DNA from: Acidobacteriota bacterium
Lineage (GTDB): Bacteria; Acidobacteriota; UBA6911; RPQK01; JAJDTT01
Assembly: GCA_965263035.1 (NCBI GenBank)
Contig: OZ253580.1
Location: 480,001 to 544,000, forward strand
Direction of reading: 5' to 3'
Length of the DNA: 64,000 nucleotides
The notes under the pieces: model-generated
Database searches by the model: none
What the model was told of the DNA's origin: nothing
Seen by the model: only the letters and a program-made list of their open reading frames with translations
Shown here: positions 5,706-42,989 of the stretch, piece by piece
How the letters are laid out: each line of letters opens with the position of its first letter
Numbering within the stretch: the first letter of the stretch is position 1
Position numbers and translations under genes: made by a program

Positions 5706-8700
5706 TCACGGTTGAATTGGAACCACCGGTAGCGTGGTAAAGATCCGGTTTCCGGTGTCCAACTCCACTGCCACTCCCGTGAACATCCCTTCCCCGGGAG
5801 CCGTACATCGGACCGACCCCACGAAGTCCCTCGTGTCCGTTCGCGTGAACAGCTCTTCGATGAACCCGGCATGCTGCCCGTTGCCGCCGAGATTGATGTC
5901 CACCGATTCCAATTCCTTACCGCTGCTCATCAGCCAGCAGCGAACCGTTATCCGTGCCACTTCCAGGTTCCGGATCGCCGCCGCCGTGCGGATCGCTCCC
6001 TGCTTGCGCCGCGCCGGGAACAGCGCGTCTGCCGTGGGTTCGCTCGCACCCACCCCGGCCACGCCGACACCGGGAATGTCAAAGCGCAGGACTCCCCCCA
6101 TGGCCCCTGACGCCACCACCCGGACCGATCCCGTCACCACCTCTCCCCGGCCATGCGTCGAGATCGTCAGCTCGCCCAGTCGAGCCATCGGAGTCCGCAG
6201 GGTCAGACCTCCGTCGTCCCGCACCAACAGATCTTCGCTGATGTCCACCATCGATTCGGGCTCCTGCAATTCTCCGCTCCGATCGTAAAAGTAGATCGCC
6301 GGACGGGCCGTTGACGCGGCCACGTTCACCAGAACCAGATCCGACGTGATCAGGGTTCCGTCACCGGAAGTCCCGTTGGCGAAATGCGCGAAGTTGAGGG
6401 TCGTTTCCCGATCTTCAGAGGCCTCCGGGTGGATTGGCACCACCGGCAGCGTGGTGAAGATCCCATTGCCCGAGTCCAGTTCCACCGCCACTCCGGTGAA
6501 CGACTCGCCGTGCGGGACCGTACAGCGCACCGACCCCACGAAGTCCCTGGTGTCAGTCGCGGTGAACAGTTCCTCGATGAACCGGGCGTTCTGACCGTTG
6601 GCGCCGAGCTCGATCCCCCTCTCTTCCAGTACCACACCGTTTTTCATCAACCGGCACTGCACGTCGACGGCGGCCATCCCCAAGTTGTGGATGGCCGCCG
6701 CCGTGCGGATCTTGCCCTCCTGCCGCCGGGCCGGGAACAGGGCGTCCCCGGTGGGTTCACTGGCGCCCACGCCGGCCACACCGATCCCGGGGATGTCGAA
6801 GCGAACCACTCCGCCCATGGGTCCGTCCGACACCACCCGAACCGATCCCGTCGCCACCTCTCCCCGGCCATGCGTCGAGATCGTCAGTTCGCCCAGCCGA
6901 GGCACCGCAGTGCGTGCGGTCAGGCCCCCGTCGTCATGGATCTCCAAATCGTTCCTGACATCCACCAATGATTCGGCCTCGAGCAGTGCGCCCGCCCGGT
7001 CGAAGAAATAGACGACGGGGCGGATCTCATCCTCACCGACGTTCACCAGCACCAGGTCAGAGGTGATCAGGACGTCATTGCCCGTGTACCCGTTGCCGAA
7101 GTGAGCGAATTCCAGGATCACCTCCTCAGGCACGGGTCGGGCCACGCCCACGGGCGTGGCCTCGGCCGGATCGGAGGAAGGACTCCGGCCGACCTCGTTC
7201 ACCGCCCTCACTTCGAAGACGTAAGCCCGGGCGTTGCTCAGTCCGGTCACCCTATGCGTCAGGTCCGTGGATCCTGTGGAGATCCACTCTCCGGCCCGGT
7301 CGATCCGGACCTCGTAGTCGGTGATGGCCGAGCGGCCGTCGCTTTCAGGCGCCTCCCAGGAGAGGGTCACCTCTCCGTCGCCGGCTTCCGTCTGCAGGTT
7401 CAAGGGCGCCGTGGGCGCCGTGGGCGCCGTTGGAGGCGGCGCGGGTGGCGGAGGTGGAGGTGGAGGGGGTGGCGGTGGAGGTGGAGGGGGCGGCGGTGGT
7501 GGTGGAGGTGGGGGAGCGACTTCGTTGTCCTGGACCGTCACCTGGGCACTCTGGGTCGACGTCGGTCCCAGCCGGTACTCGTCTCCGGACTGCAGCCGGG
7601 CGGTGACTCTTCCCGCGGACTCGGATACGTCGTCATCATCCGTCAACACCGACAGCGTCGCCGTCTCCTGCCGGGCCTGGAACACGACTTCTTCCGGCGG
7701 CTCGTATGACGCCGACGTCTCGATCACCGACCCCCGCTCGGTGACCTCCACGTTCACGGTCAGCGACGCTTCCGTAGGCGGCCCGCGCGTCAGAGTGAAC
7801 TCCACGGTGTCGCCTTCCGTCACCGTCTCCGATCCCTGCCTCGCTTCGATGGTCACCAGCGGTGGCTCGGCCCGCCGGTTCGCCGACGTCTCCGCGGCGT
7901 TGCTGACCTCGTCCTGAATCGGGTTGAATCCCGGCATATAGTCCACCATTACTGTTTCACCGGCCCCCACCGCTGAGGCCAGCGTCAAGATGACGCTGTT
8001 GCCCCTGACCTGGACCTGGGTGACCGTTCGATCGTTCCCGTCCACCGTCACCGCGAAGTCGGAACTCGACGGCACCGAGCCCTCATCCAACTGCTCGTCG
8101 TAGTTCAGCGCCACCCGCGACCCGTGCACCGTCACGTCTTCCAGCTCCGGTTCCGCCCCGTCCACCTTGTGGTCCGCCTGCGCCTCTACCTCTTCGTAGT
8201 TCCGCGCCGCCGCGTTGTCCGCCAGGTCCAGGATCTTCCCTCCGTTGAGCGCGATGCTTCCCCGCGGGATGCTCACTCCATCCTCGTCCTCGTCCCCCTT
8301 CTCCACCGTGTAGACGAACACCACGGCTGGGCGGTCTGGCCCCACGCTGGCGCTGGCCCGCTTCCGCCGGTTCCCTACCAGAAGATCCAGCGTCGGGGTC
8401 CCCCGCACCGTGTCCACCGTCACCGTCTCGTCGTAGCGCACCGTCACCGAGATCATGTCCCCGATGGCGTACGTCTCATCCGTTCCCGGGTCCGAACTGA
8501 TCTCGATCCCTTCGATCGACGGCGCCGTCGTGTCCGGCGTCTGGTTGTCCAAGAACTTGTCTGTAAACCTCTCGGCGTCGTTGCCCACCCGGTCCTGGAT
8601 CGGATTCGATCGCGGCTCGTAGCTCACCCGGATCCCCGTCTCTCCGTGTTCCGCCGCTGGACTCACCGTCAGCCGAACCTCACTCCCGGTCACCTGAACC

Positions 8701-11700
8701 CGGGTCACGGTTCGCGTCTCATTGCCCCCGGCCACGGTGAAGTCGCTCGTGGCCGGTCTTGAGGACGTATTCAGGGGTTCGTTGTAGGTCAGCGTCAGCG
8801 TCGCCCCGTTCACCACTGCCGGATCGGTCAGAGCCGGCGCCACCGCGTCCACCTTGTGGCTCGAACTGGCCACCACGGCCGTATGGTCCAAGGTGGCGTC
8901 ATTGCCTGCCCCGTCCCGGATCGTCCCTCCCGCCCGGGACAACTGGTTCTCCTCGAGACTCACACCGTCCTCGTCGACGTCGTCCGTCACCACCCGATAG
9001 GTGAACTTCACCGCCCGGTTCGAGACACTCCGGTACTCCGCCGTGGGATTCCGGCTCCCCACTATCAATGTCAGTTCGGGAGTCCCCGTCACCACCACCG
9101 TCTCGTTGAACGTCACCGTCACTTCAATGGTGTCGTCCACGCCGTACGTCCGGTCCGACCCTGCACTCGAGGTGATCCGTACCGTCGACACCGTCGGCCC
9201 CGTCGTGTCTCCCGTCCGATTCGTGACGCTCCGGTTGCTCAGCCGGTCCGCGTCGTTGCCGGCCGTGTCCTGGATCGGGTTCGATCCCGGCTCGTAGCTC
9301 ACCCGCAGGCCGCTCTCTCCGTCCGTGACTGCCGAGCTCAGCGTCAGGAAAACGGCACTCCCGTCGACCTGGACTCGCTCGACCGTCCGGGTCTCGCTCC
9401 CTCCCGTCACGGTGAAATCGTCCGTCGACGGCTCCGGAGAGGTGGTATCCAATGGCTCGCCGTAAACCAGCGTCAGCGTGGTCCCGTTCACGACTGCCCC
9501 GTCGGACGTTGCCAGCACCGGCTTGACGCCATCCACCTGGTGCTGGTTATCGGCCGCCACCGGCGCGTGGTTCAGCACTGCGTTGTTCTGGGCCCCGTCG
9601 CGGATCGTGCCGCCTGAAAGGCGGTTCGCATCGATGCTCACCCCGTACGGGGCCGTGTCGCTCGAGACCACCTGGTATGCGAACCTCACGGCGGCGCCCG
9701 TGACATCCTGGTAGTTGGCCGTTCGGCTCCGGCCGCCTACGTTCAACGTCAACCGCGGCGTCCCTGTCACCAGGACAGTTTCGTTAAACGTGACTGTCAC
9801 TTCGATGGTCTCGCCGGCCGCATAAGTCTGATCCGACCCCGCGTTGGAGGTGATCCGCACCGTTTCGACCGTCGGCCCCGTCGTGTCTCCCGTCCGGTTC
9901 GTGACCGGTTCGTTGTTCAACTCGTCCGCCGCGTTGCCCACCACGTCCCGGATCGGATTCGATCCCGGCTGGTAGCTCAAACCGAGGCCGAACTCTGCGT
10001 CTTGCACCGCCGGGCTCAAGGTCAGGAAAACGGCGTTCCCGCTCACCTGGACCCGCGTGACCGTCCGGGTCTCACTGCCCCCGGTCACGGTGAAGAGGCT
10101 CGCCGCCGGTCTCGAGGACGAGTTCAGCGGCTCGCTGTAGGCCAGCGTCAGCATCGTTCCGTTCACCACCGCCCCGTCCGTCGTGGCCAGCATCGGGGGC
10201 ACGCCGTCCACCTTGTGCCGCGAATCGGCCGCCACCCCCGCGTGGGTCAAGGTGGCGTCATTCCGCGCTCCGTCGCGGATTGTCCCGCTCCCTCGCGACA
10301 GGCTGTCCGCGTCGATGCTCACCCCGTCCCGGTCCCGGTCGCCCGAGACGACCATGTACTCGAACTTCACGGCAGCTCCCGAGACGCTCACGTACTCCGC
10401 CGTCCGATTCTGGCCGCCCACGCTCAGCGTCAACCGCGGTGTCCCCGTCACCACCACCGTCTCGTTGAACGTCACCGTCGCCTCGATGGAATCTTCCACG
10501 GCGTAGGTTGAATCCGACCCTGCACTCGAGGTGATTCTCATCGTCTGCACCGCCGGTCCCGTCGTGTCTCCCGTGACGTTGGTGACCGGCCGGTTGCTCA
10601 ACCGGTCCGCATCGTTTCCGGCCGTGTCCTGAATCGGCTTCGCTCCCGTCCCCGTCGGGATCGTGTAGCTCACCCGCAGCCCCGTCTCTCCATGCTCCAC
10701 CGCCGGATCCACGGTCAGCTCCACTGCACTCCCGCTCACCCGGACTCCCGTGACCGACCGCGTCTCGCTCCCTCCCGTCACGGAGAAGGCATCGTTCCCG
10801 GGGACCGAAGACGAATCCAGAGTCTCGCTGTAAGCCAGCGTCAGCATCGTCCCGCTCGCAACGGCGCCGTCGGTCGTCGCCAGTACGGGTTTGATGCCGT
10901 CCACCTTCTGCCCCGTGTCGGCCGCCACCGCCGTATGGGTCCGGACGGCATTGTTCCTCGCCGTGTCCCGGATCGTCCCGCCCGACAGGCTGCCCGCCTC
11001 GATGCTCACCCCGTCCGTGTCGCTGTCGTTGACGGCCACCGTGTAGGCAAACACGACCACCGCCCCCGTGACGCTCTCGTAGGTCGCCGATCGATCCCGT
11101 TCCCCCACCTTCAGCGTCACTCCCGGGTTCCCGGACACCGTGACCGTCTCGCTGAAGGTCACCGTCACCTCGATCTCCTCGCCGATGCCGTAGACATCCC
11201 GGCCGTCCGGCGGATCCGAGGTGATCTCGATGGAAGTGACCGTGGGAGGGATACGGTCCGGCGTCTCGTTTATCACCGGCATGCTGCTCAGTCCGTCCGC
11301 GTCGTTGCCGGCCCGGTCTTGAATCGGCATCGCCCCCATCCCGGTCGGGACCGTGTAGCTCACACGGATCCCCGTCTCCCAATGCGCCACCGCGGAGGAG
11401 AGAGTCATATCCACCGCACTGCCCCTAAACGCGACACCAGAAACGGTGCGCGACGAAGCGCCCCCCGAGACGAAGAACGCGCTGGACGGCGGCATCGATG
11501 TCGAGTCCAGAGGCTCGGTATAGGTCAGCGTCAACGTCGTCCCATTCACCACGGCCCCGCGCGTCGGCGCCAACTCCGGCCTGATCCCGTCCACCTTGTG
11601 CCGCGAATTGTTCCCCAATGCGCGATGATCCAGATCGGCCTCGTTGTCCGATCCGTCCTCGATGGTCCCTCCATTGACCGACAGGCTATTCGCCGCGATG

Positions 11701-14700
11701 CTCACGCCGTTGGTGTCCACGTCGCCGGTGTCCACCCGGTAGCGGAACAGCATCTCCTCGTCGGTAACGCTCTGGTAGTCCGCCGTTCGATCCTCGTCCC
11801 CCACCCTCAGGGTCAACTCCGGCGACCCCGTCACGAAGACGTCCTCGCTGAAGGTCACCGTCACCTCGATCACATCCCGGATCGCGTAGGTTGAATCCGA
11901 TCCCGGGTCCGACGTGATCTCCACCTTGCTGACCGTCGGATCCGTCACATCCGGGATCGGCACGACCACCGAAACCCGCATGCTTCGGCTCGCTTCGCCG
12001 CCATTGATCGCGGCCGCCACCTGATAGACATAGGTGGCGCCGGTGGTCACGTCGGTATCGACGTAGGTGCGGCTTGAAGTGTTCTCAGAGATGATCTCGA
12101 CGGTGCTTCCGGAGGTGCGGTAGAGGTTGTAGGTCACATTCGAAACGGCGGACCAGGTCAGCGTCACCTGGCCCAGCGCGGGGGTCGCCATCAGGGCCGG
12201 GCTGGTTCGAATCTGTTCGCCGAACTCCTGCCACGTCGCCCCCCCGACCCCATTCGTGTCCACTGAAAGGACCGGGTACTGGCTGGACGTTCCGAAGACC
12301 CACGGGTCATCGTTCATGCTGTCGCCGTTCAGGTCCAGGTTCCAGTTTTGATAGATGCCGCTGGTGTCCGTGGGCATCTGTAACGCTGACGTGTTCTGGG
12401 GTTGACCGTAGGATCCCGTGGTGCGCCCCGAGGTATCGCTGTCCCAATAGCTGTCGGTGATCCTGCCGCTACCGCTGTTGCGGCCAACCAGGCCACCGAT
12501 GGTGCTGCGGCCCGACACGAGGCCGGTCGCATAGCTGATGTTGACGTCGCCGGTGTTCCGGCCGATCAATCCTCCGGCCTCGAAATCCCCCACAACTCGG
12601 CCCGTCGCGTAGGCGGCGATCACGTCGCCGCTGTTGGACCCGATTAGCCCGCCGACGCGGTCGTCTCCCGTCACGTGGACGGTGGAGTAACTGACGGTCA
12701 CGGCCCCGTCACTCAGGTTGGCTCCGATGAGGCCCCCGACATCGTCGTCGCCGGACACCTTACCCGTGGCAAAACACCCGCTGACGGCGCCATCGTTGGA
12801 ACCCACCAGACCGCCGACCTGGTCCGTTCCCGTCACCTGGACCGCGACCATCTCCAGGTTCCGGATGACTGCGGACGACGTGGTCTCACCGAACAATCCG
12901 ACGTCGTTTCCACTACCATCGATAAACAGATTGGTGATGGTCCGCGCGTTCCCTTCGAAGATGGCCGCGAAGCTGCTGGATGAGTCACCGATGGGCACCC
13001 ACCCGGCTCCGCCGTTCCAGTAGTCGTCGCCCATGTCGACGGCGCCGCTGTTGTCAGTGTCGAAGTCCAGATCGGCGCGGAGTTCGTACCCCACGCACCC
13101 GAAGAGGCCGCCGCAGGCCAATTCATCGCCGGCGCCGGAGAAGGCCGCGATATACGTGGTATATCCGCTGCTCGGAAGGCCGTCACCGTCCAGGTCGTGA
13201 CGGACCGCATCGAGCTGCTCCAGATTGCTGATCTCGATGAGTCCGTCGTCGTCGGTGTCGTAGTCGGTGGTGGATGTCGAGAGCACCACCACCTTGAACT
13301 CCTGGGTCGAGCTCCGGTTGGACCCGTCGTCGGTGGCCGTCACCGTGATGACGGCATCCCCTTCGCTCAGCGGAGTCATCGTCAACCGCGTCCCCGAACG
13401 GGTGACCAGGACGACGCTCGTGTCGGACGAAGACACGCCGTAGGTAATCATGTCTCCCTCGGGGTCCACGAACGCCCCCGAAAACTCCGTCATGGCCGAG
13501 TCACCGACGAGGAGCGTCCGTTCCGGCAGGTACCCCACTGGCATCGGCGCCCCGTTTCCGCGCGCTTTCACCGTGACCCTCGCACTGCGTGTTGCCTCGC
13601 CGCCGGCGACGACCGCCGCGACCTGGTAGGTGTAGTCTTCATCGACCGTCACGTCGGAGTCGGTGTACGTCCGCACCGAGAGGTCCTCCGCCAGGGTCTC
13701 GACGGTGCCGCCGTCGACGCGGGTCACGGTGTAGCTCACAGTCGGCGCCGGCATCCACTCGCTGCTTACGGACACTTCGGTCCAGGTCACCACCACCTGG
13801 GCCGGATCGGGGGACCGCGTCGTCGAAGTCGCAGTCACGGTCGGACCGGACCGGAGCTGGTAGCCGAACTCCTCCCAGGTCGTATCGTCGTTTCCATCCA
13901 CGTCGACGGAAAGGGCCGGGTACTGGCTGGAGGTGCCGAAGTCCCAGGGGTCGTCCCTATCGTCGTCACCGTCCAGATCCACGTTCCAGGTCCCGTAGAT
14001 GCCGCTGTAGCTTCGGGGCGACTTCAACTGGGAGGTTGTCCTGCCCGAACCGGCCGACCCGGAACTATGGCCCGTCGTGCTCGTATCCCAGTAGCTGGCG
14101 GTGATGGTCCCTCCCTCTTCGTACCCCACCAATCCGCCGACATTGGAATTTCCCGTCGCAGGACCCGTGGCGTAGCTGGCGCTGATCTCGCCAATTGATT
14201 TGTTGTTTCCGACGAGACCACCCACGTCGGTATTCCCCGAGGCGCGGCCGGTGGCGTAGGCGGCGATGATCTCGCCTCGGTTGTCCCCCACCAGCCCGCC
14301 GACGTCGTCGTCCCCCGAAACGAGACTCGTGGAGTAGCTGCCGAGAATCGCGCCGAAGACATAGTTCATCCCCACCAGTCCGCCCACGTTGTCGTCCGAG
14401 GAGATCTGTCCGGTGACATAGGTCCCGCGAATGACACCGTTGTTGAAGCCGACCAACCCACCGGTGAGCCCGTCACCCGTCACATCGACCTCGGACAATC
14501 CGACGTTCCGGATGACGGCAAAGGCGAAGCCGAACAAACCCGATAGGACCAAACTGTCCGAATCGATGAACAGGTTGCTGATGGTATGCCCGTTGCCGTC
14601 GAAGACCGCGATGTACGGATTCCTCGCCGTGAAAAAGAAACCGCTGGATGTGCTGCCGTCCCCGCCGATGGGGACCCAACCGTCACCGCCGTTCCAGTAG

Positions 14701-17700
14701 TCATCGTCCGAGTCGACGTCGCCATCCCCGTCGGTGTCGAAGTCCAGGTCTGACGTCAACTCGTAACCACGGCACCCGTATATCTGGCTGCAGCCCATCC
14801 GTTCCACCGCATCCCCAAACGCCCTCTCATAGGAGGTCTTTCCATCGGCCACGGGCGTCCCGTCCCCGTCCAGATCGTGACGAACGGCATTGAGCCGCTC
14901 CAGCGTCGCAATCTCGATGAGCCCGTCCTCGTCGCTGTCGTAGTCGACCTCGGTGGCCGACCAGACCAAAACGGTGAAGCGCTGCGTGGCGGCGGTGCTG
15001 GAACTGGACGCGTCGGTGGCCGTCATCGTGATCGTCGTGCGGCCCGCGGCCACCGGCGTGACGGTCAACCGGGCAGCCGACCGGGTGACCGTGGCCACGG
15101 ATGTCGCCGACGAGGACGCCCCGTAGGTGAGCGTGTCGTTGTCCGGATCCCGAAACGACCCGGAGACGTCCACCTCCTTCGTGCTCCCACCGACACGTAG
15201 CGTCAGATCCTGCAAGGCTCCCACCGCCACCGGCGGCTGGTTGGCCGCGCCCACGATCACCGAAACCGGCCGGCTGCGAGCCGCTTCACCGCCGTCGAGC
15301 AGGGCCGCCACCCGGTAGGTGTAGGTATTTCCGGTGGTCACGTCCGTGTCGGTGTGCTGGCGCGACGTGGCGCCTTCCTCGACCGTCTCTTTCGTGGTTC
15401 CGTCGTCACGGACGAGGTCGTAGGTGACGTCCGGAGCAGGACTCCAGGGACTCGTCGACACCGCGGACCAGTTGAGGACCACTTGAGCTTGGCCATCGGT
15501 CGTTGTCGCCGTCAGGGTCAAGGCGGGCCGAACCTGGTAGCCGAATTCCTGCCATGTCGCGCTATGGTTCTCATTCAGATCTACGGCCAGAACGGGATAT
15601 TGGCTGGACGTCCCGAGATGCCAGGCGTCGTCGAGCTCCCCGTCCAGGTCAAAGTCCCAGTTCCAGTTCTCATAGATGCCTTCGTAGTCCGTGGGCGACT
15701 GCAGGGCGGCCGTGGTCTGGCCCGCCAAACCCACCATCTGAGATTCCGTTCCGTCGATCACGCCGTTGTTATTCACGTCGTCCTCACCGACGCCGACGCG
15801 TACGCCCGACGACTCGAGGTCCCAGTAGCTCCAGCGAAACGTGACGTCTTCGGAGACGGCGCCCACCAGTCCTCCCACCACCGCGTTGCCGGACACGGTT
15901 CCTGTGGCGTAGCTGGCCAGAATCAGGCTGCAGGCATTTCCAGCCAGCCCGCCGACGCCGCCGAATTCACAATCGTCCACGCCCGTTCTGCGGACCCCTT
16001 GGCCGGACACGTTCCCCGTGGCGTAGCTGGCCCGGATGGGATCGTTGGAGGACCCGACCAACCCGCCGACCGCGTGGTCTCCGGAGACGTTCCCGGTGGC
16101 GAAGCTGCGGATGATCCAGCCGTCGAACTGATTGCCGACCAACCCGCCGACCGCTTCGGTTCCCGATACCCCTACAGCGGCGGTGCTGTCCACGACGAAA
16201 CTGTCCGACCAACCCACGAGGCCGCCCACGTCATCTCCGCCGGAGACCTGACCCGTGGCCCGGCTGCGAACGATCAGTGCGTCTTCGACCTCACCGGCCA
16301 GACTGCCGACAAAATCGTCACCGGTCACGTCCACGTCGACCAGATCGACGTCCCCTAACGCGGCCGTCTCGAACACTCCACCGTCGACGCGGCCGAACAG
16401 GCCGACTCGGTCCTCCGAATCCCGGTCGATGAACAGGCTTGTTATGGCCTGACCGTTGCCTTCGAATATCGCCGTGTACGGATCGCTTGAGTCCCCGATG
16501 GGCTCCCAGCCGTCGCCGCCGTTCCAGTAGGTGTCGTCTGAGTCGACGTCACCATCTCCGTCCGTGTCGAAGTCCAAATCCCCCCTCAGCTCGTATCCGA
16601 TGCACCGGTCGGGGCACCCCATGCTCTCCGCAGCCTCTTCGAAGGCGTCGTAGTACGTTTGCCAGTTGGTGCCATCCACCACGCCATTTCCGTTCAGGTC
16701 GTAGCGGATGGCGTCGAGCTGGGCCAAGGTGTTGACATCGATGAGGTTGTCGTTGTCAGTGTCGTAATCCCGGTTCCCCAAAACGACCGAAACCGAGAAG
16801 TCCAGAAACGCGCTCAGACCGTCCGGATCTGTAGCACGCACTAACACGGTAGCCGAGGTGGGACGCCGCGGGGTCACCGTCAGTTGGGACCGCGGGGAAC
16901 CCGAGACACTGACCTCCAAACGATTGTCGGTGGAAAGCGCCTCATAGGTCAGAGGATTGTTGTCCGGGTCGGTGAACTTGGTCGACAGATCTACGGTTAT
17001 GGGCGCGTCGCCCGGAGTGAAGGTCCGGTCGTCCAGCGTGCCCGTAGCGGTGGGCGCCCCGTTGCGGTCCGCCTCCGCCACATCGACGGCATCCACGGCG
17101 CCCGGCGCCATGACGATGCCGGCACCGGAGTCGTGGTCGACCCCGGTGGCCTCGATATCGAGAGCGGACCCGGTCATGCCCATGAGGAGCTGCGACTGGA
17201 TGACGTTGCCGGGCCCGCCGGCCGCCTCCAGCATCAAAGCTCCGATTGCCGCCGCATGCGGCGCCGCGGAGGACACCCCGCAGAAGATCGAGAAACCGGG
17301 CGTCGCGGTGCGGACGCAGGTCGCCGCGGTGATGTCCGGTTTCTCCAACAGTTCCCCGCCGGTGGAGGAGAAATTTCCTACCGTGATGGGAGTGCCGTCC
17401 GGCTCGAAAAAGATTCGGCGTGGCCCGTCCGAGTTGGAGGTTCGGACCGATTCGGTCCCGTCGAAGACGCCGCCCGTTCCACCGGCGCTCTGGACGGCAA
17501 CCGCCGCGATGCTGATCGCGTTCTCCGCCGCAGAGTGGCCGTAAAGGTTGCCGGCGGTCGCGACGGCCAAACGCCCTCCGACGGTGTCCAGACGGAGGTA
17601 CCGATTCGAACCGGAGGACTTGACGATGACGAGCCGCGCACCCGAATGATCCTCTTCATCCGAATAGACGGCCTCGAACGGATCCTGGGTGCCGTCCTGG

Positions 17701-23656: not shown

Positions 23657-23659
23657 TCC

Positions 23660-26441: not shown

Positions 26442-26546
26442 GATTGAGACTGTATCAATCCCAGGAAGAAGTCGCCAAGCCGGGGACGGCGTCAGATTCG
26501 TAGACGGGTGATCCAACTGGTAGGATTGCGGGCGAGGAGGACGACC

Positions 26547-27902
26547 ATGAGCCAGCCGGTTTCCGGCCCCCTGTTGCTTCAGGACCCCGCCTACGACTAT
26601 CCGGTGGTGGAAAGAGGCGAGGGAATCTACGTCTACGACGGCGCCGGCAAGCGTTTCATCGACGGCACCGCCGGAGCCGGCAACGTCATTCTGGGCCACG
26701 GACGCCGGCGGATCGCCCGGATCATGGCCCGCCAGGCCGAGACGCTGGCCTTCGTCTTCACTTCTCATTTCACCAATCCGGTGGCCGCCGAGCTGGCCGG
26801 ACGGCTGGCGGAAAAGGCGCCGGGCCAGCTGAATCATGTCTATTTCGTCTCCGGCGGCTCGGAAGGAGTCGAGACCGCGTTGAAACTGGCACGGCTCTAC
26901 CACCTGCGGCGGGGCCAGGGCCAGAAACATCAGGTCATCGCCCGTTGGAGCAGCTATCACGGAGCCACGCTGGGCGCGCTCTCGACCACCGGATCCGGAG
27001 TCCGGCACGCCTTCAGTCCCTGGCTGGCCGGGTTCGAGCACATCGACCCCTGCCTGCCACGGGCGTGTCTCTTCGACGGATGCGGGGAATCCTGCACGCT
27101 GGCCTGCGCGCGCGAGCTGGAACGGGCCATCATCCGGGCCGGACCGGAGAACGTGGCGGCCTTCGTGGCCGAACCCGTCTCCATGGCCGGCGGTGCCCCA
27201 GCCATTCCGCCGGCCGACTACTTCCCTCGGATACGGGAGATCTGCGACCGCTACGGCGTGCTCTGGATCGCCGACGAAGTGGTGACCGGATTCGGCCGGA
27301 CGGGGCGTTTCTTCGCCATCCAGCACTGGGATGCGGTTCCCGATATCGTGGCCTTCGGCAAAGGCGTCAGCAGCGGCTACCTCCCCATGGGGGGCGCACT
27401 GTTCACCGATGAGATCCGGCACGTGTTGGAAGCCAAGAAAGATGCCCTTCCCCACGTCTTCACCTACGTGAACAACCCTCTCGCCGCCCGGGTCGGGCTC
27501 ACCGTCCTGGACCTGATGGAAGAAGAGAGCATCGTGGAGAGATCGGCCGCCATGGGGGACTACCTGCTGGAGCGAGTCCGGACCCTGCGCAGCCATTCCA
27601 TGGTGGGCGACGTCCGGGGCCTGGGAATGCTGGTGGGGTTCGAACTGGTGAGCTCCCGCAAGCCCTACACCTACTTCCCCCCTAATCTGAAGGTCCATGA
27701 GCGATTGCACCGGCATCTGATCCGCCGGGGACTCTCCATCTCCGCGACGGGAGGTCCCGGCGACGGGAGCCCGGGGGACAGCGTCCGCATCTTCCCCCCC
27801 CTGGCCATCACCCGGGCGGAGATCGACGAAATCGTAGAGATGTTGGACGAGGCGCTCACGGCAGTGCGGCGCCAGATCGAGAGGGTAATGAGGCATGCGT
27901 GA
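26547..27902 (+). CDS. Class III PLP-dependent aminotransferase
   Basis: SGGSEGVETALK, SYHGAT, IADEVVTGFGRTG and FGKGVSSGYLP. Confidence 0.93.
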   Translation: MSQPVSGPLLLQDPAYDYPVVERGEGIYVYDGAGKRFIDGTAGAGNVILGHGRRRIARIMARQAETLAFVFTSHFTNPVAAELAGRLAEKAPGQLNHVYFVSGGSEGVETALKLARLYHLRRGQGQKHQVIARWSSYHGATLGALSTTGSGVRHAFSPWLAGFEHIDPCLPRACLFDGCGESCTLACARELERAIIRAGPENVAAFVAEPVSMAGGAPAIPPADYFPRIREICDRYGVLWIADEVVTGFGRTGRFFAIQHWDAVPDIVAFGKGVSSGYLPMGGALFTDEIRHVLEAKKDALPHVFTYVNNPLAARVGLTVLDLMEEESIVERSAAMGDYLLERVRTLRSHSMVGDVRGLGMLVGFELVSSRKPYTYFPPNLKVHERLHRHLIRRGLSISATGGPGDGSPGDSVRIFPPLAITRAEIDEIVEMLDEALTAVRRQIERVMRHA

Positions 27903-36125: not shown

Positions 36126-36205
36126 CGCGGTTGAATTAGCGGCCTCTTTGGGCCATTCTTGGGGACGGTCATTTCGTTTGCTCACAGTCCATTAGGAGGA
36201 ATCCC

Positions 36206-36868: not shown

Positions 36869-37090
36869 GGACGCTCACCCAGGTCAACGGCCGCCCCACA
36901 TCGTTCGCTTGACTCACCATCTCTTTCGACCGGAGCCGAGACGGCCGGAATTGACGAATCCGAGGTCATCGACCGACAAAGTCGAAGTACGGTTTCAACA
37001 ATATTTTTGTTATCTTGACGCTGGTTTAAGGATCCAGGCATTGAAATTTCGTTGCGCCGGCATAGTCGCGTACGATTCGAAAACACGCCC

Positions 37091-38608
37091 ATGGATGGAC
37101 CTGAGGGTATCTTAGAGGCGCCGCAACCCTCTCATCAGAGCGTCGAACGGTCGACTCGCGATGCACGCGGCGAGACACCGGACGGCCTCCGGATGTCCCC
37201 TGAAGCCATGCTCGATCTGGCCCGCCGGGCGGCGGAGCTCATCGTGGAGCGAATCGAGTCCCTCCCGGAAGAGGGTGCCTGGGAAGGGGAGTTCCGCCAG
37301 GAGTTGGTGGACCAGCTCCTGGAAGATCCCCCCGAGTCCGGCCTGCCTGCACTGCAGGTCATCGAACGGGCCGCCCGAGACATTCTGCCGGTGGCGGCGC
37401 GTATCGATCACCCTCGTTTCTTCGGGTTCATCCCGTCTTCGCCCACCTGGCCCGGCGTGGTGGCCGACTTCATGGCCGCCGGGTATCACGTCAACCAATG
37501 CACCTGGCTGACCTCGAGCGGTCCCAGCCAGCTTGAATTGGTGGTCCTCGAATGGTTCCGCCGTTGGGTCGGATATCCCGAGAGTGCGGGAGGGATCCTG
37601 ACCAGCGGTGGCTCCGCAGCCAGCCTGGACGCCTTCGTCGCGGCGCGAGAAGCCGCAGGCCACCCCGGCCGCGCCACGGTCTACATGGGCGACCAGAGTC
37701 ACAGCGCGCAGATCCGGGCGGCCAGGATCATCGGCATCCGGTCTGATTGCATCCGCAGGGTGGCGAGCGATGACCGCTTCCGACTGGACCTGGAGGCACT
37801 CCGGCGCGCCGTGGACGACGACCGCGCCGCCGGATTCAATCCCATCGCGGTGTGCGCCAACGCCGGGGCCGGCAGCACCGGGGCCATCGATCCGCTGGTC
37901 GCGATGGCGGACTACTGCGAAGCGGAAGGCCTCTGGCTCCACGTCGATGCGGCTTACGGCGGTTTCGCGGTGGTCACGGAAAAGGGCAGAGAGTTTTCTT
38001 GCGCGGAATGGAGCGGGCCGACTCCATCGGCCTGGACGCCCACAAATGGTTCTTCCAACCCTACGAGGCGGGCTGCCTCATGGTGAAGGATGCCACGACG
38101 CTCGACACAGCGTTCCGAATCCCCCACGACATGCTGCAGGACACGATCTGGGGGGGGGAGACATCCCAACTTTTCGGACCGCGGCCTGCAGTTGAGCCGG
38201 TCGGTCCGGGCCTTGAAGATCTGGATCTCGGTCCAGACCTTCGGCATGGACGCCTTTCGCCAGGCCGTCTCAAAGGGAATGGAGCTGGCCGCCCGGGCCG
38301 AGAAATACATCAAAGCGAGCCCGGTTCTGGAGGTCATGAACCCGGCGTCCCTGGGGATCGTTTGTTTCCGCGTCAACCCGGCGGACGCAAATCTGGACGC
38401 GGTATCGCTGCAAGAGATCAACCGCACGGTGCTGGTGCGCATTTTTTGGGAAGACCGGGCGTTCATATCGTCGACGCTTCTGCATGGGAAGTTTTCACTC
38501 CGGATGTGCATCATCAACCACACCACGACCTGGGACGATGTCCGGGAGACGCTGGAGGCCGCCGAACTATTTGGGTCGGAAGCGGTGTCCGCAAGGAAGG
38601 ATTCGTGA
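37091..38608 (+). pseudogene. Group II PLP-dependent (aromatic L-amino acid-type) decarboxylase with two frameshifts
   Basis: HPRFFGFIP, SGGSAAS and WLHVDAAYGG in frame A; DAHKWFFQPY in frame B; LSRSVRALKIW back in frame A. Shifts at the T4 run near 37994 and the G9 run near 38150. Confidence 0.85.
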
Positions 38609-38656
38609 GCGGGACCGGACGGACTCGGTGCCGGCGCCGGCGCCGGAGCCGCATTC

Positions 38657-39673
38657 CATGAGGGGTATGTCCTCTTTCACGGGTCTTGACCGGACCAGCA
38701 AGGTCACATTCAGATCGAGCGCCAGGACCGTAACGGATTCAAATTCGTGAAAGCCCTCATCGATGCGGCCACCTCGGGAAAAGGTTACGTCGAATACGAC
38801 TGGGATGATCCCTCGGTAGAAGGGGACGAGGACATTGGTTCCGCCAAGGTCGGCTACACCGAATCGTACACGTTTCCTGATGATTCCTCCGTCTTCGCGG
38901 GCCAGACCGTGGTCATCGGCTCCGGCTTCTACAAGGGAAGCCAGATGGCCTTGGACTTCGCCCACTTCGGCAACGGGGAATCCTTCAGCTCCGACGTGGT
39001 TTTGGTCAATCTGGCCGCCACGCCGATCCGGCCCCTCGTCTACTTCTATGACACGTCGGGTGAGCTCATCGACCCGGGATCGTTGGTGGACGTCATGGGG
39101 AATCTGTATACCACGGACTTCGGCGCTCTGACCCTCCTGTCCGAATTGCCGTCCCTGGGAGAGGTCACCATTTCGACGAACGGTATGGGAGACCTCATGA
39201 CCGGTTCGGTGAAAGTGGTGACCGAAGGTCTCGACAGTCCCATCGGAGGAGTCCTGCGCTTTGACTTTCCGGGCGTCGGCGTGGCCGACGTGGGAGCCAG
39301 CCAGGCGCTCCGCGACGCCATCATCCCCGTGCGCCGCCAAGCCGCTGGCATCAACACGGGAGCGGCACTGCGCAACCTGAGCGAGTCCGAGTTGATGTTG
39401 GCGTGCCGATTGATGATGGGTGGCGAGATGATCGAAATGAAGCCGGTCACTCTGCCGGCCAACGGTCAGGTGGCCATGCTCATCAGCGAGCTGTTCGAGC
39501 ACGACACGTCCGACTTCACCGGGTCGGTCCGTTGTACGGCGCCACCGGGAGAACAGGAGTTCACCGGCGTGGCCGTGGAGATGGACGACATGAACGGTAT
39601 CTTCACCACGCTGCCGATGGTGCCACTGGACGGAGACATGAGCGCGCACGAGGAGATGGCTTCGGAGGAATAA
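38657..39673 (+). pseudogene. 5'-truncated Cache + conserved C-terminal domain paralog
   Basis: HEGYVLFHGS*PDQQG...DRNGFKFVKALIDAA aligns with GNVIFHGSRPDLEG...DRNGFQFVSALIDAA of the next gene; in-frame TGA at 38687; no signal peptide. Confidence 0.75.
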
Positions 39674-39698
39674 ACGAAGGCAGAACTATCATTTGAGT

Positions 39699-39728
39699 CC
39701 GGGCAGGCCGTGGCTTCGGCCTGCCCGG
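39699..39728 (+). terminator. GC-rich hairpin, putative terminator
   Basis: CCGGGCAGGCCG-TGGCTT-CGGCCTGCCCGG just after the stop at 39673; weak U tail. Confidence 0.55.
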
Positions 39729-39889
39729 TTCTACCCGGAGTCAGAGGAATCGGCTCTCGACGCCATGCCGACGCCAGCCTGACCCACTGATTCGACGGAC
39801 GTCCGTGGCAGCTTTTACCACGGACTTTTTGTTGTTATAAAGGTCTTGTCAAGCCCATGGACCACACTATTCGAAACGGAGTGAACGAA

Positions 39890-41662
39890 ATGAACTTTTC
39901 AAGATCGATGATCCTTTGGGGGACTGTGCTGACCTTGTCCGGCTTTTGCGGCGTAATGCCTTCGGTTCTTGCCGACGAGGATGAGCGGACCACGGCCAAA
40001 GATGTGGTGGACTCGAAAACCGACATGGAGTACCAGGACAACCTGAAGGAATTCGTCCGCTCCGCAAGGGATTACTTCCTTGGCCTTCCCCTCAGTGCGC
40101 TACTGTCCACGGTTAAGGATATCCTGCAGGAAGAGGGCGGGGATTGGAACTACAAATCCATGTACCTCGTTGTCCTGTTCCCGGATGGCACTGTGTATTC
40201 GCACGGCGAAGATCCGAGTAAAGACAACACGAACATCAGAGACGCCGTAGACGACAATGGCAAGGAAGTCGTCGAGGGAATACTCGCCGTGGTAGATGCA
40301 GACGAAGAGGGAGGATTCGTCGAGTACACGTGGGACGATCCGGCTACGGACGAGGACATGAATCCCAGGTATTGCTACGCCATCAAGGGCGGTCATCCCG
40401 AATACCCCGTCCAGGAATTCATTCTGGTCGGTGGCTATCACCACAACGTGACGAGGACGGAAGAAGAAACGGAAGAACTCCCTGAATTCCCGGAGGTTTC
40501 AGCCCAGGACGTTCGGGACCGGGAGACTCTGAAAGCCTTCGTTCAAGGGGCGGGTGATTGGGCTCTCAGGGCCCTGCCGACATTGAGCTTCGATCTGCCG
40601 AAATTGTGGACTGAATTCAGGCGGGAAGGGGGGCATTGGAGGCATGGCTCCACCTACATCTTTGCGATGACGCCCGACGGTAATGTGATCTTTCATGGTT
40701 CCCGTCCGGACCTGGAGGGCCAGATCCTGATCGATCTCGAAGACCGCAACGGATTCCAATTCGTAAGCGCTCTCATTGATGCTGCCGTCGACGAAGAAGC
40801 AAGTAGCTATGTCGAGTACTACTGGGACGATCCGGGAGTCACCGGCGACGAGGAATTCGGGTCCGCGAAGGTCGGATACGCCGAAGCCGTCACGCTACCG
40901 AATGACTACGCCATCTTCCCGGGTGCGACCATCGTCATCGGCTCCGGCTTCTATAAGGGGGGACAGGTGGCCCTCGACTTCGCGCACTTCGGCAACGGGG
41001 GAGGCATCACCTCGGACATCGTGGTGGTGAACGCGTCCGCCAACGCGGTCCAACCGGCCATCTACTTCTACGACAAGATGGGTGAACTTATCGACGCGGG
41101 ATCGGTAGTCGACGTCATGGGGCAGGGTTTGGAGGTCACGAGCTACGGAGCTCTGACCGTTCCGAATGAAATACCGTCCCTGGGAGAGCTTACGATCCCG
41201 ACCCACGGTATGGGAGACCTCATGACCGGGTCGGTAAAGGTGGTTTCCGACAGTACCGAGAGCCCCATCGGGGGGGTATTGCGCTTTGACCTGACGGGTG
41301 TCGGCGTGGCCGGTGTCGGGGCCAGCCAGCCGGTCCGAGACGCCATCTTCCCGGCTCGCCGCATGGCTGGCGGGATCAACACCGGGGCGGCGTTCCGCAA
41401 CTTGAGCGAGTCCAAGCAGATGTTGACCTGCCGGCTGATGAAAGACGGCCAGGAACTCGACATGGAGGAGGTTGATCTGCCAGCCAACGGACAGGACGCC
41501 AAGTTCATCCACGAGATGTTCGAATACGACACGTCGGACTTCTCAGGTTCGGTCCGCTGCACGTCACCGGAAGGGGAGCAGGAATTCACTGCCGTCGCCC
41601 TGGAATTGGATACAAACAACGGCATCTTCACCACACTGCCGGTGGTGCCGGTGGCGCAATAG
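39890..41662 (+). CDS. Secreted protein with two Cache_2-like domains and the conserved C-terminal domain
   Basis: Signal peptide ending PSVLA; two copies of LKxFV...W...Y...HG...DxNG...VEYxWDDP...GxGxY; then LDFAHFGNG...FTTLPVVP. Confidence 0.8.
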   Translation: MNFSRSMILWGTVLTLSGFCGVMPSVLADEDERTTAKDVVDSKTDMEYQDNLKEFVRSARDYFLGLPLSALLSTVKDILQEEGGDWNYKSMYLVVLFPDGTVYSHGEDPSKDNTNIRDAVDDNGKEVVEGILAVVDADEEGGFVEYTWDDPATDEDMNPRYCYAIKGGHPEYPVQEFILVGGYHHNVTRTEEETEELPEFPEVSAQDVRDRETLKAFVQGAGDWALRALPTLSFDLPKLWTEFRREGGHWRHGSTYIFAMTPDGNVIFHGSRPDLEGQILIDLEDRNGFQFVSALIDAAVDEEASSYVEYYWDDPGVTGDEEFGSAKVGYAEAVTLPNDYAIFPGATIVIGSGFYKGGQVALDFAHFGNGGGITSDIVVVNASANAVQPAIYFYDKMGELIDAGSVVDVMGQGLEVTSYGALTVPNEIPSLGELTIPTHGMGDLMTGSVKVVSDSTESPIGGVLRFDLTGVGVAGVGASQPVRDAIFPARRMAGGINTGAAFRNLSESKQMLTCRLMKDGQELDMEEVDLPANGQDAKFIHEMFEYDTSDFSGSVRCTSPEGEQEFTAVALELDTNNGIFTTLPVVPVAQ

Positions 41663-41726
41663 AGAGTGACATCGCAGGAATGGATCAGCGAGAGCGTCCG
41701 TTCGTCAGCGAAAAGGAGCAACCAAC

Positions 41727-42989
41727 TTGAAATCTTCAAGAACGCTGTTTCTCATGGGGATCATGGGGCTGGCGGTAGTCCTTTCCGCTCTGCAGCCCGC
41801 CCTCGCCCAGGGCACCGGGATCATGGCCAGCAAAGTCCTGGACCGGGAAACCCTGAAGGCTTTCGTCAGGTCTGCAAAAGCGTACGTGGAAGGCATCACC
41901 GATGCTGCCCAGATCGACGATCTTTTAAACGAGCAATGGAAGTCCGACTCCGTCTACCTCTACATTTCGAATGACGAGGGCATCATCCGCTGGCACGGGG
42001 CCAATACGGCCCTGGTGGACCAGGATCTAAGCGGTCTGGAAGACGAGTTCACCGGAGCCCTGTTCGTCCAGGAACTCGTTGCCACGGCCAAATCGGGGGG
42101 AGGCTATGTCGAGTATCATTTCGACGATCCGGTAGTGATCGGAGACGAAGATCATACTTCGCCCAAGTTGGGATACGTCGAGCCTTTCACTTCGCCCCTC
42201 CCGGACCTCTTTCCCGACCGGAACATGGTCATCGGATCCGGAATCTATCTCGGGCATCAGGTCGCGCTGGACTTCGCCCATTTCGGCAATGGATCCGCCA
42301 TCAGTTCCGATGTCGTGCTGGTGAATCTGGCTGCAACGCCGATCCGGCCTGCGGTCTACTTCTACGACAAGGCTGGCGAACTCCTCGACCCGGAATCGGT
42401 GGTGGACGTCGGCGGAAATCTGGAAACCACGGACTACGGGGCGGTCACGCTCCAGTCCGAATTGGCACCCCTGGGCGAAGTCACGATTTCGACCAACGGT
42501 ATGGGAGAGACCGTGACCGGATCGGTGAAAGTGATCTCCGACGGTCCCCACAGCCCCATCGGCGGGGTCTTGCGCTTTGACGTTCCCGGCGTTGGTGTGG
42601 CCGGCGTCGGAGCCAGCCAGGCGGTTCGCGACGTCATCTTCCCGGCCCGCCGTCAGGTTGGAGGCATCGACACCGGTGCGGCACTCCGCAACCTGAGCGA
42701 GAAAAAGCTGACGTTGACCTGCAGCCTGATGATGGGCGGCGAGGTGCTGGAAGAGAAGGAAGTCCCGCTGGCGGCCAACGGTCAGATTGCCAAGTTCATC
42801 GGCGAGATGTTCGACTACGATACGTCGGACTTCACGGGATCGGTGCGCTGCACGGCGCCGGGAATCGCTCAGAAGTTCACGGGAGTCGCGGTGGAGTTGG
42901 ATTCCATGAACGGAATCTTCACCACGCTGCCGGTGATTCCTCTGGAGGGCGGGATGCCTTCCGGGGATGAAATGGCGTCCGAGGAATAG
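41727..42989 (+). CDS. Secreted protein with one Cache_2-like domain and the conserved C-terminal domain
   Basis: AAGGAG plus TTG start; signal peptide ending QPALA; TLKAFV...WHGAN...GGYVEYHFDDP...VIGSGIY; then LDFAHFGNG...FTTLPVIP. Confidence 0.8.
   Translation: MKSSRTLFLMGIMGLAVVLSALQPALAQGTGIMASKVLDRETLKAFVRSAKAYVEGITDAAQIDDLLNEQWKSDSVYLYISNDEGIIRWHGANTALVDQDLSGLEDEFTGALFVQELVATAKSGGGYVEYHFDDPVVIGDEDHTSPKLGYVEPFTSPLPDLFPDRNMVIGSGIYLGHQVALDFAHFGNGSAISSDVVLVNLAATPIRPAVYFYDKAGELLDPESVVDVGGNLETTDYGAVTLQSELAPLGEVTISTNGMGETVTGSVKVISDGPHSPIGGVLRFDVPGVGVAGVGASQAVRDVIFPARRQVGGIDTGAALRNLSEKKLTLTCSLMMGGEVLEEKEVPLAANGQIAKFIGEMFDYDTSDFTGSVRCTAPGIAQKFTGVAVELDSMNGIFTTLPVIPLEGGMPSGDEMASEE

Follow-up and report, generated by a model that had tools for sequence, protein, structure and literature searches.

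The 64,000-nt window analysed here carries four open reading frames that share one C-terminal module of 230 aa. One encodes a giant secreted protein on the reverse strand; the others, on the forward strand, are two intact Cache genes and a 5'-truncated Cache remnant. The genes and their module copies are as follows.

5706..20441, reverse strand: giant-protein gene, secreted product of 4911 aa
5709..6404, reverse strand: module copy B of the giant protein (aa 4680-4911, up to the stop codon; HMM 389 bits)
6426..7121, reverse strand: module copy A of the giant protein (aa 4441-4672; HMM 391 bits)
38690..39673, forward strand: 5'-truncated Cache-module gene remnant (first possible start, GTG, at 38747)
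38945..39634, forward strand: module copy of the truncated Cache remnant (HMM 418 bits)
39857..41662, forward strand: Cache gene of 601 aa, with a signal peptide, two Cache stretches and the module
40967..41659, forward strand: module copy of the 601-aa Cache protein (HMM 418 bits)
41727..42989, forward strand: Cache gene of 420 aa; a signal peptide and one Cache domain precede the module, which is followed by an acidic tail of 13 aa
42261..42950, forward strand: module copy of the 420-aa Cache protein, used for the structure model

A sequence-only reading of the same DNA had described five copies of one C-terminal domain and proposed that an HMM be built from them. When this HMM was searched against all six frames of the window, it recovered the five copies and nothing else at E ≤ 10, with per-copy scores of 389-421 bits, domain E-values of 1e-120 to 1e-130, and positions within a few bases of those first reported. 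The matched intervals are 6426-7121 and 5709-6401 on the reverse strand, and 38945-39631, 40967-41656 and 42261-42947 on the forward strand. The giant protein contains SWM repeats, GLUG and Ig-like domains, a poly-Pro tract and an fn3 domain (aa 4345-4428), followed by modules A and B as a tandem pair at the protein end. The truncated remnant is without a signal peptide and retains the final ~85 aa of a Cache domain and an intact module; the same arrangement of a truncated Cache remnant is seen at another locus of the family, L030. In all four ORFs the distance from module to stop codon is 0-13 residues; after TTLPVVP the carriers have 0-13 further residues, most of them acidic. Identity to copy A of the giant protein is 56-70% for the remaining four copies, and column identity averages 73%. 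Signal peptides were judged by eye from the translations (basic N-region, hydrophobic core, A-x-A-like site), and all three intact carriers possess one, as had been claimed.

At the sequence level, the module is unnamed. No Pfam or NCBIfam family covered it in the four window carriers (E ≤ 0.01), and the five modules alone gave no Pfam family at E ≤ 10, the scores for CC_PcsB (E 0.13) and tRNA_anti-codon (E 0.19) being at chance level. Likewise, no Pfam family was found on the module in 40 representatives at 1e-5, nor in 26 more at 0.1. A sequence profile search of the PDB with the module gave 0 matches at E ≤ 10. The nearest named Atlas clusters were DUF5719 and ASRT, whether the whole module or its first half alone was taken, and neither family (PF18986 and PF07100, respectively) was matched by the five modules in hmmscan at E ≤ 10. 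A profile of the second half produced 1106 matches to short proteins at E ≤ 1; no remote named relative was present among the 120 matches listed, all of which are close relatives that lack Pfam domains and are probably fragments. The absence of known sorting motifs, as perceived from the sequence, agrees with these searches: the T9SS CTD models (Por_Secre_tail and type B CTD) gave no match in Pfam/NCBIfam at E ≤ 0.01, the PEP-CTERM/exosortase features (PEP motif, C-terminal transmembrane helix, basic tail) were not seen in the window carriers, and no model of SLH, autotransporter barrel, dockerin or known CBM families matched the module, whose structural model consists of sandwiches and not of a barrel. 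In open-access papers and preprints we found no published description of the module, and one relevant paper alone (PMC2739507).

The module family comprises 2130 clusters at 50% identity, 150 of which are among the matches listed, and at least 2534 clusters at 90% identity within the 407-2000 aa range alone. Locus counts refer to the 70 loci kept, 233 of the 313 confirmed genome stretches having been left out. All 70 originate from Acidobacteriota assemblies, in agreement with the suggested lineage restriction, and a single assembly supplies nine of them. Two modules are present in 107 of the 148 representatives and one in 38; of the 96 closed ORFs from the loci, 51 carry two modules and 43 carry one. 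No more than 15 residues lie between the module and the C-terminus in 126 of the 148 representatives and in 86 of the 96 closed ORFs (about 90%), a bias that a plain binding module would leave unexplained. The generalization that the module is always C-terminal holds in the window. Family-wide, it is internal or N-terminal in seven of the 96 closed ORFs, where it is followed by >50 aa (e.g., CARDB repeats or Sod_Cu), and in two of these, at loci L028 and L034, it stands directly after the signal peptide. Non-C-terminal homologs thus exist as a minority; because of them, we consider the module to be more than a terminal tag.

The proteins that carry the module are highly diverse and include proteases, LRR, NHL, cadherin, fn3 and Cache proteins, a sulfatase and Cu/Zn-SOD. 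The partner domains are of extracytoplasmic types, Cu/Zn-SOD among them, which substantiates the earlier claim of unrelated secreted cargo, and an fn3 domain often lies immediately N-terminal of the module. Neighbour families were defined by clustering the crude gene predictions of the 70 loci, 537 in all. No recurrent neighbour gene emerged, the largest non-module family being present in nine of the 70 loci, all of them syntenic orthologues. Neither a glycan-synthesis gene nor a receptor gene was found to recur beside the module genes of the 70 loci, which is a point against a docking function, and no secretion genes, including those for PorU, PorV and SprA, are located within the window.

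Across 571 unique instances of the module, conservation reaches 97% or more in 43 columns, many of them polar or charged (H7, N22, R105, R130, N144, Q175, E212 and D214). The Cys pair, which had been called invariant and is complete in all five window copies, is conserved at 99.5-99.6% in this larger set. Strand 1 reads L-D-F-A-H-F in the first half of the module and I-F-P-A-R-R in the second, with F5 and F8 conserved at 99.1%. With strands taken from the structural model, N22 (98.9%) closes strand E15-22, and N144 (98.2%) closes strand E136-144. Since this very high conservation extends across paralogs with unrelated cargo, it suggests one shared target. A FastTree phylogeny of 249 modules (103 first-position, 103 second-position and 43 single) did not form two position-specific clades. 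Second-position modules are over-represented in a single clade (48 of its 57 leaves, support 0.90), which contains only 48 of the 103 present in the tree. The two copies of the giant protein (A and B) are near neighbours, as are copies A and B of another carrier, P0124. The tree indicates more than one origin of the tandem pair.

Structure prediction and Foldseek, both proposed in the sequence-only reading, gave fold matches for the second half of the module and poor matches for the whole. The AlphaFold model of the entire module from the 420-aa protein (pLDDT 93.2, pTM 0.88) has two all-beta halves, which are predicted to form two eight-stranded beta-sandwiches, the N-terminal one at ~aa 1-118 and the C-terminal one at ~aa 119-230 (nt 42615-42950). 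Matches to the whole module (transglutaminase, WxLIP, arrestins, pilins, RbmA) were discounted, with TMq of 0.12-0.28 and rmsd of 14-24. Because the two-sandwich model gave only such poor global matches, a fold search with one half alone was needed. For the second half modelled by itself (pLDDT 95.2), the best PDB match was TM1070 (1nc7; TMq 0.75-0.77, prob 1.00, Foldseek E-values of 2.4e-3 to 5e-3), and ASRT was also matched (2ii7, 2ii8 and 2ii9; TMq 0.63-0.67, TMt 0.69-0.74, prob 1.00). The remaining fold matches listed have TMq ≤ 0.47, among them the C-terminal domain of the subtilase Tk-SP (3afg; TMq 0.43) and generic sandwiches. In the model, the first half has the same strand count and order as the second. 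The comparison of half 1 with half 2 by hhalign was not significant (probability 0.5%, E 0.12, 10 columns near a shared T-G-S-V-K/R); from the parallel strand patterns in the model, we infer that the two halves may be homologous.

Proteins of the ASRAH superfamily are eight-stranded sandwiches with a nearly invariant Asn closing strand 2, according to De Souza, Iyer and Aravind (2009; PMC2739507). In that paper, ASRT and TM1070 are described as homotetramers; extracellular members are always dyads or tetrads, such as an actinobacterial cell-surface lipoprotein with two domains and a Chloroflexi amidase with four; and ASRAH domains are predicted, and only predicted, to bind sugars. By its second-half fold match the module shares the eight-stranded topology of TM1070/ASRT, it has the Asn closing strand 2 in both halves (N22 and N144), and it is a dyad in that one module equals two sandwiches, tandem modules making four. 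Where ASRAH domains begin strand 1 with a conserved Trp, the module has a conserved Phe, and profile matches to PF07100 or PF18986 are lacking. We take DUF5719/PF18986 to be today's name for the actinobacterial two-ASRAH lipoprotein family.

ASRT and TM1070 (PF07100; 2II7, 1NC7), the founding ASRAH members, resemble the module in the fold of its second half, in the strand-2 Asn of both halves, and in bringing four sandwiches together, although they do so as a homotetramer and the module as a covalent dyad or tetrad. They are single-domain, cytoplasmic, stand-alone proteins, whereas the module is fused to secreted cargo and has a conserved Cys pair; it lacks both the strand-2 His/Cys signature of their pocket and their strand-1 Trp, and there is no detectable sequence similarity. 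The extracellular ASRAH families, as presented in the 2009 paper, are likewise secreted dyads or tetrads, with cell-surface polysaccharide or peptidoglycan as the predicted ligand, but each has one fixed architecture and occurs in other phyla, whereas the module is a mobile cassette with many cargos in Acidobacteriota. The resemblance approaches a confident match to a carbohydrate-binding or catalytic family, but it lies at the level of the fold, and sugar binding by the superfamily is itself a prediction. The missing sequence-level link to ASRT or DUF5719, the modest E-values for TM1070, the substitution of Phe for Trp and the undetected similarity between the halves all weigh against assigning the module an ASRAH-like docking function.

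With a probability of about 0.5, we propose that the module is a new extracytoplasmic ASRAH-like docking or anchoring module, composed of two ASRT/TM1070-like sandwiches and probably glycan-binding. On this proposal, the carriers would be exported by their N-terminal Sec signal peptides, and the module would fold outside the cytoplasm, a disulfide probably locking the second sandwich. The first sandwich would be an ASRAH homologue as well. The two sandwiches of one module would constitute a covalent dyad and tandem modules a covalent tetrad, while single modules may assemble into tetrads. The module would bind one common, conserved ligand, most probably a glycan belonging to the cell envelope or to the polysaccharide matrix around it, and binding would hold proteases, adhesin-like LRR/NHL/cadherin/fn3 proteins, Cache ligand-binding proteins, sulfatase and Cu/Zn-SOD at the same place. 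The module's features fit a binding or anchoring role better than that of an export signal. Of the original suggestion of a lineage-specific export signal or S-layer-like anchor, the anchor half is plausible, and the export half is weakened by the tandem arrangement, the length, the conservation, the non-terminal cases and the ASRT/TM1070 fold.

It seems unlikely that the module is instead a sorting tag for a dedicated Acidobacteriota outer-membrane translocation or attachment system, perhaps being cleaved or covalently attached. Such a tag would fit the strong C-terminal bias, the signal peptides of the carriers, their restriction to one lineage among the loci kept and the many carriers with unrelated cargo in a genome (as in the assembly that supplied nine loci), and machinery encoded elsewhere would account for the absent conserved neighbour. 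The T9SS CTD of Bacteroidota offers a parallel as a C-terminal beta-sandwich on many unrelated Sec-signal proteins of one lineage. It is one small sandwich of about 70-100 aa. The T9SS CTD is strictly terminal, cleaved and poorly conserved, whereas the module is double, usually tandem, sometimes non-terminal and highly conserved. Tandem duplication in 107 of 148 representatives would be unexpected for a secretion signal, and the 230-aa length and the conservation far exceed those of known sorting domains. Seven of the 96 ORFs continue past the module, which is N-terminal at L028 and L034; moreover, no T9SS CTD, PEP-CTERM or other sorting model matches, and no machinery is encoded in the window.

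We are also doubtful that the module serves, in the manner of a dockerin, in protein-protein docking to a cohesin-like surface receptor or scaffold, or simply in the dimerisation of single-module carriers into ASRT-like tetramers that could, for example, pair Cache domains. Dockerins are conserved, mostly C-terminal and sometimes internal, and occur on very many unrelated proteins, which is the distribution pattern of the module. Together with SLH and CWB2 repeats, the dockerins of cellulosomes resemble it in being conserved, repeated and mostly terminal, and they hold diverse secreted proteins on a common receptor or polymer, but their folds and sequences are unrelated to the module, and none of their models matches. 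The ASRT/TM1070 homotetramers and the dyads or tetrads of other ASRAH families (PMC2739507) would be consistent with docking, as would the repeated origin of the tandem pair in the module tree. A WxL-interacting protein and pilins are among the top whole-module Foldseek matches, but at TM ≤ 0.28 these are too weak to count; no candidate receptor was found, and oligomerisation alone leaves the association with every kind of secreted cargo unexplained. Very improbable, in our view, is a passive spacer or stabilising beta-sandwich without a specific partner, spread by domain shuffling and comparable to the C-terminal beta-jelly-roll of some subtilases. The Tk-SP domain and the generic sandwiches in the second-half fold list point in this direction, as does the fn3 domain that often directly precedes the module. 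However, spacers are not confined to one protein end, the 43 highly conserved columns with their many polar or charged residues are extreme for such a role, and the truncated Cache remnant has a lower dN/dS in its module (0.26) than in its cargo part (0.38).

Little is known of how Acidobacteriota, which are abundant and difficult to grow in culture, display or retain surface proteins. We speculate, while regarding it as unlikely, that the docking or anchoring module is the address tag of an as yet undescribed, Acidobacteriota-wide surface-display system in which a dedicated receptor, scaffold or translocon recognises the ASRAH-like dyad or tetrad. If so, hundreds of different secreted proteins per lineage, including proteases, eukaryote-like LRR/NHL/cadherin proteins and detached Cache sensors, would be assembled on the cell surface, and Acidobacteriota would have a functional equivalent of the cohesin-dockerin or T9SS-CTD systems. 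The ASRT-like fold, for which a biochemical function is so far only predicted, would have in the module its first large extracellular expansion. Should the module bind a defined glycan or receptor, it would be of use in localisation studies, as a basis for affinity reagents and in explaining how eukaryote-like repeat proteins and enzymes are positioned on the cells. The module marks a very large secreted set, so it could already serve as a genomic marker of the surface or secreted proteome.

An HMM built from the five module copies and searched against the six-frame translation of the whole window matched exactly those five, at 389-421 bits, with no further match at E<=10. The five copies picked out in the sequence-only reading are confirmed, with their coordinates, and stand far beyond chance. 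The copies and their carriers, in a window of ~61-68% G+C, are the following.

5706-20441, (-): giant-protein ORF, 4911 aa, ending in two adjacent ~232-aa repeats
aa 4441-4672 and aa 4680-4911 of the giant protein (translation): module copies A and B
38690-39673 from stop to stop, first start GTG at 38747, (+): truncated Cache-module ORF, only the end of a Cache domain and one module
39857-41662, (+): Cache ORF, 601 aa, one module at its end
41727-42989, (+): Cache ORF, 420 aa, one module at its end

Relative to copy A of the giant protein, the remaining four show 56-70% identity, and the mean column identity is 73%. Signal peptides had been claimed for the three intact carriers, and these look Sec-like by eye: basic residues come first, then a hydrophobic core, then VLA|D or ALA|Q. 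Both residues of the reported Cys pair are invariant in all five window copies. Pfam at E<=0.01 assigned Cache domains to both intact Cache proteins, and SWM_repeat, fn3, GLUG and Ig-like domains to the giant protein. In the latter, subtilase-like G-T-G-I-G-I-G-V motifs occur in two N-terminal regions left uncalled by Pfam at that threshold (its relative P0149, a cluster representative from the profile search, matches Peptidase_S8), and at ~aa 4290-4340 there are about 25 uninterrupted prolines followed by (P)TAP repeats, directly before the last fn3 domain and the modules.

No Pfam or NCBIfam family covered the module in its carriers at E<=0.01, and the five modules alone, searched against Pfam at E<=10, gave two matches, both at chance level. 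The T9SS CTD, PEP-CTERM, SLH, autotransporter, dockerin and CBM models are all contained in the Pfam and NCBIfam libraries searched and none matched the module, in agreement with the earlier remark that it seems to show none of the motifs of the T9SS CTD, PEP-CTERM, SLH or autotransporter barrels. A profile search of all PDB sequences produced 0 matches to it at E<=10, module-only proteins in a large protein collection were without any precomputed Pfam domain, and a literature search found no description. The module family is real and very large; it has no name in the libraries searched and is undescribed in the literature searched. Among 1.84 billion cluster representatives at 50% identity, the module HMM retrieved 2130 proteins at E<=1e-3, 1177 at 1e-10 and 473 at 1e-30; a word-indexed search gave 686 relatives of 126-403 aa and at least 2534 of 407-2000 aa (best 7999 candidates scored). 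A scan of species-representative genomes matched 379 stretches, 313 of which were confirmed, and the best 80 of these were reduced to 70 loci (L001-L070) from 21 assemblies by our count, with up to 9 loci from one assembly. Every assembly has Acidobacteriota, Terriglobia, Candidatus Aminicenantes or Candidatus Acidiferrales in its title. The loci contain 98 module ORFs, every one on the matched strand, and 21 of the 70 hold at least two module genes. They have no recurrent neighbour: the largest non-module family occurs in 9/70 loci, which are syntenic. The window encodes no secretion or anchoring machinery.

The 230-aa module of the 420-aa Cache protein was modelled with AlphaFold2 (44-sequence alignment; pLDDT 93.2, pTM 0.88) as an all-beta structure with strand blocks at ~1-118 and ~121-230, two predicted beta-sandwiches termed here half 1 and half 2. 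Foldseek of the PDB with the whole model gave only poor global matches to other two-sandwich proteins (TMq <= 0.28). Half 2 modelled alone (pLDDT 95.2) matched the Thermotoga protein TM1070 (1nc7; TMq 0.75-0.77, TMt 0.73-0.74, rmsd 3.0-3.4, prob 1.00, E 2.4e-3 to 5e-3) and ASRT, the transducer of Anabaena sensory rhodopsin (2ii7, 2ii8, 2ii9; TMq 0.63-0.67, TMt 0.69-0.74, prob 1.00), while the other matches listed, to FlgD, the RetS sensor domain, cellulosomal CBMs and the Tk-SP C-terminal domain, had TMq <= 0.47. In a protein-language-model Atlas, the nearest named cluster for the whole module and for half 1 alone was DUF5719 (PF18986); both queries also listed an Acidobacteriota cluster with DUF5719 in 39% and ASRT (PF07100) in 13% of its members. 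These clusters are leads rather than tests, and they agree with the fold search. Halves 1 and 2 show parallel patterns, including a common T-G-S-V-K/R strand, and hhalign of one against the other detected no significant similarity.

De Souza, Iyer and Aravind (PMC2739507) showed that a superfamily of eight-stranded sandwiches, ASRAH, is defined by ASRT and TM1070. They describe a nearly invariant Asn that ends strand 2 and stabilises the next turn, a conserved Trp that starts strand 1, and a predicted ligand site in a cleft that strand 2 lines and that arises in part at a dimer interface; sugar binding is a prediction from gene context (PMC2739507). The module, as modelled, shares the fold at least in half 2. 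Its strand 2 also ends with the Asn in each half, within ...S-D-x-V-x-V-N in half 1 (N22, 98.9% conserved over 571 unique module instances) and ...T-x-A-A-x-x-N in half 2 (N144, 98.2%), but strand 1 has Phe in place of Trp. The secreted ASRAH families, namely a surface lipoprotein of actinobacteria and an amidase of Chloroflexi, are without exception dyads or tetrads (PMC2739507); likewise, one module comprises two sandwiches and the common tandem pair four. No sequence-profile match of PF07100 or PF18986 to the module was obtained. We therefore file the module as ASRAH-like at the level of modelled fold and motif, with homology probable, not proven. The predicted fold ties it to a known but poorly understood superfamily, for which a mobile, mostly C-terminal cassette on a great many kinds of secreted cargo in one phylum is new.

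Module architecture was counted in 148 of the best 150 of the 2130 representatives and in the 96 of 98 locus ORFs not cut by a locus end. The last module lies within 15 residues of the C-terminus in 126/148 representatives, with tails of 16-50 residues in 8 and >50 in 14; the corresponding numbers for the 96 ORFs are 86, 3 and 7. Two full tandem modules are present in 107 representatives, one in 38 and only partial modules in 3, and the ORFs carry two in 51 cases and one in 43. A hydrophobic N-terminus was found in 71/148 representatives by a crude hydropathy test; among the rest are many apparently truncated gene calls. A Pfam search of 40 representatives at 1e-5 and 26 more at 0.1 identified Cache, LRR, proteases (trypsin-like peptidase with PPC, astacin, M64, reprolysin, subtilase), NHL/teneurin-like propellers, glucose/sorbosone dehydrogenase, Spondin_N, cadherin, Calx-beta, CARDB/DUF11, SWM repeats and sulfatase as cargo, very often with fn3 immediately N-terminal to the module; no family's best-matching stretch fell within a module. 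Precomputed Pfam lists of the 407-2000 aa relatives add WD40, matrixin and PPDK_N.

The module had been described as always C-terminal, which holds in the window and in ~90% of the carriers counted, but fails for the 7/96 ORFs with long tails, L028 and L034 among them. In these two and in representative P0133 the tandem pair directly follows a clear signal peptide and is N-terminal. In L069 a signal peptide likewise leads almost at once into the module. The tail of L007 (1028-1486) contains a complete Cu/Zn superoxide dismutase domain, an architecture of a surface-tethered SOD; CARDB/DUF11 repeats follow the module in L025 and L058, CARDB repeats in P0138, and cadherin and fn3 domains in P0221. 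The tails of L028 and L034 (343-416 residues) matched no family above threshold. Every identifiable partner domain of these exceptions is of extracytoplasmic type. Since the module sits before other domains or right after a signal peptide, it is able to stand at either protein end and needs no free C-terminus, as would be expected of a binding module more than of a terminal signal for secretion. Many second-position modules (e.g., P0014) bear a ~14-residue Pro-rich insertion that separates strands 2 and 3 of the first sandwich. Second-position modules average 236 aa, vs 227 aa for those in first position, and they make up one clade (48 of 57 leaves); the giant protein of the window lacks the insertion.

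Across the 571 instances, from unrelated carriers and many genomes, 43 columns are >=97% conserved, many of them polar or charged (H7, N22, R105, R130, N144, Q175, E212 and D214). The two Cys (99.5-99.6%) belong to the second sandwich, in its strands 3 and 6, which share a sheet by the ASRAH topology given in PMC2739507, and we infer a disulfide between them. Compared with syntenic L030, the module has a dN/dS of 0.26 and the cargo part of the same gene 0.38; judged from these sequences, purifying selection is stronger on the module. Taken with the fold family, the occurrence as dyads and tetrads and the acceptance of internal positions, this conservation and selection point to a docking module with one common ligand. 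Carriers would be exported via Sec, as their signal peptides, judged by eye, suggest, and the module would fold outside the cytoplasm, consistent with the conserved Cys pair. It would then bind one common partner, as conservation across unrelated carriers suggests, which would keep a wide variety of secreted proteins in the same location. The other extracellular ASRAH families point, by analogy, to a glycan as the most probable ligand, from the envelope or the surrounding matrix, whether the cell's own or foreign.

The earlier proposal of a sorting or anchoring module survives in spirit as an anchor, whereas its export-signal part is weakened. The 90% C-terminal bias, the many carriers per genome and the lineage restriction among the loci kept would suit a true sorting tag, whose machinery need not be linked. 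However, tandem doubling, the size and conservation of the module, the non-terminal cases and the lack of any match to Pfam or NCBIfam sorting-signal models make this reading doubtful. We regard as equally doubtful a dockerin-like unit for protein-protein docking or oligomerisation: ASRT and TM1070 form tetramers, and from the module tree tandem pairs seem to have originated repeatedly, with copies A and B of the giant protein near neighbours, likewise those of P0124, and only 48/103 second-position modules in one clade of 57 leaves, but no receptor was found. The conserved polar residues make a passive spacer unlikely.

Returning to the gene family itself, same-strand paralog arrays are common, and L061-L065 and L070 form one 58-kb stretch of one Terriglobia assembly. 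The three Cache-module genes of the window are such an array, syntenic with L001-L005, L013, L017 and L030. Their truncated member (38690-39673, +) lacks a signal peptide and ~285 N-terminal residues, ~880 bp present in L002 being absent here. The same form occurs in L030 (4702-5622) at ~85% nt identity, the frame is still open, and the module dN/dS of 0.26 equals that of the intact neighbour; this ORF may not be a dead remnant. Short ORFs with a partial module, or a module without cargo, gave 1106 matches of 59-202 aa at E<=1, several of them on megabase contigs, and 5'-truncated copies occur at several loci (this set includes L011, L013, L017, L018, L029 and L030). Their abundance suggests frequent breakage or recombination in the family, or frameshifted assemblies.

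Among the other genes of the window, ORFs at 24894-27896 (-) (1000 aa), 44535-46151 (-) (538 aa) and 54925-56394 (-) (489 aa) have coding-like GC3 and no Pfam match at 1e-5. A PLP-dependent decarboxylase (Pyridoxal_deC, 37052-38608, +) is read in pieces, with profile positions 10-248 in one frame, 305-374 in an ORF past a TGA at 38084-38086, and the conserved DAHKW...YEAGC stretch that falls between these two pieces in a third ORF, read in a different frame; it is either a pseudogene or the product of assembly frameshift errors. A group II intron-type reverse transcriptase/maturase (RVT_1 and GIIM) lies at 49569-51062 (-). At 39-4082 (+), a protein with a helicase C-terminal domain precedes one that combines an MrfA Zn-binding domain with an S24 peptidase domain at its C-terminus, an unusual pairing that is possibly linked to DNA repair or defence.
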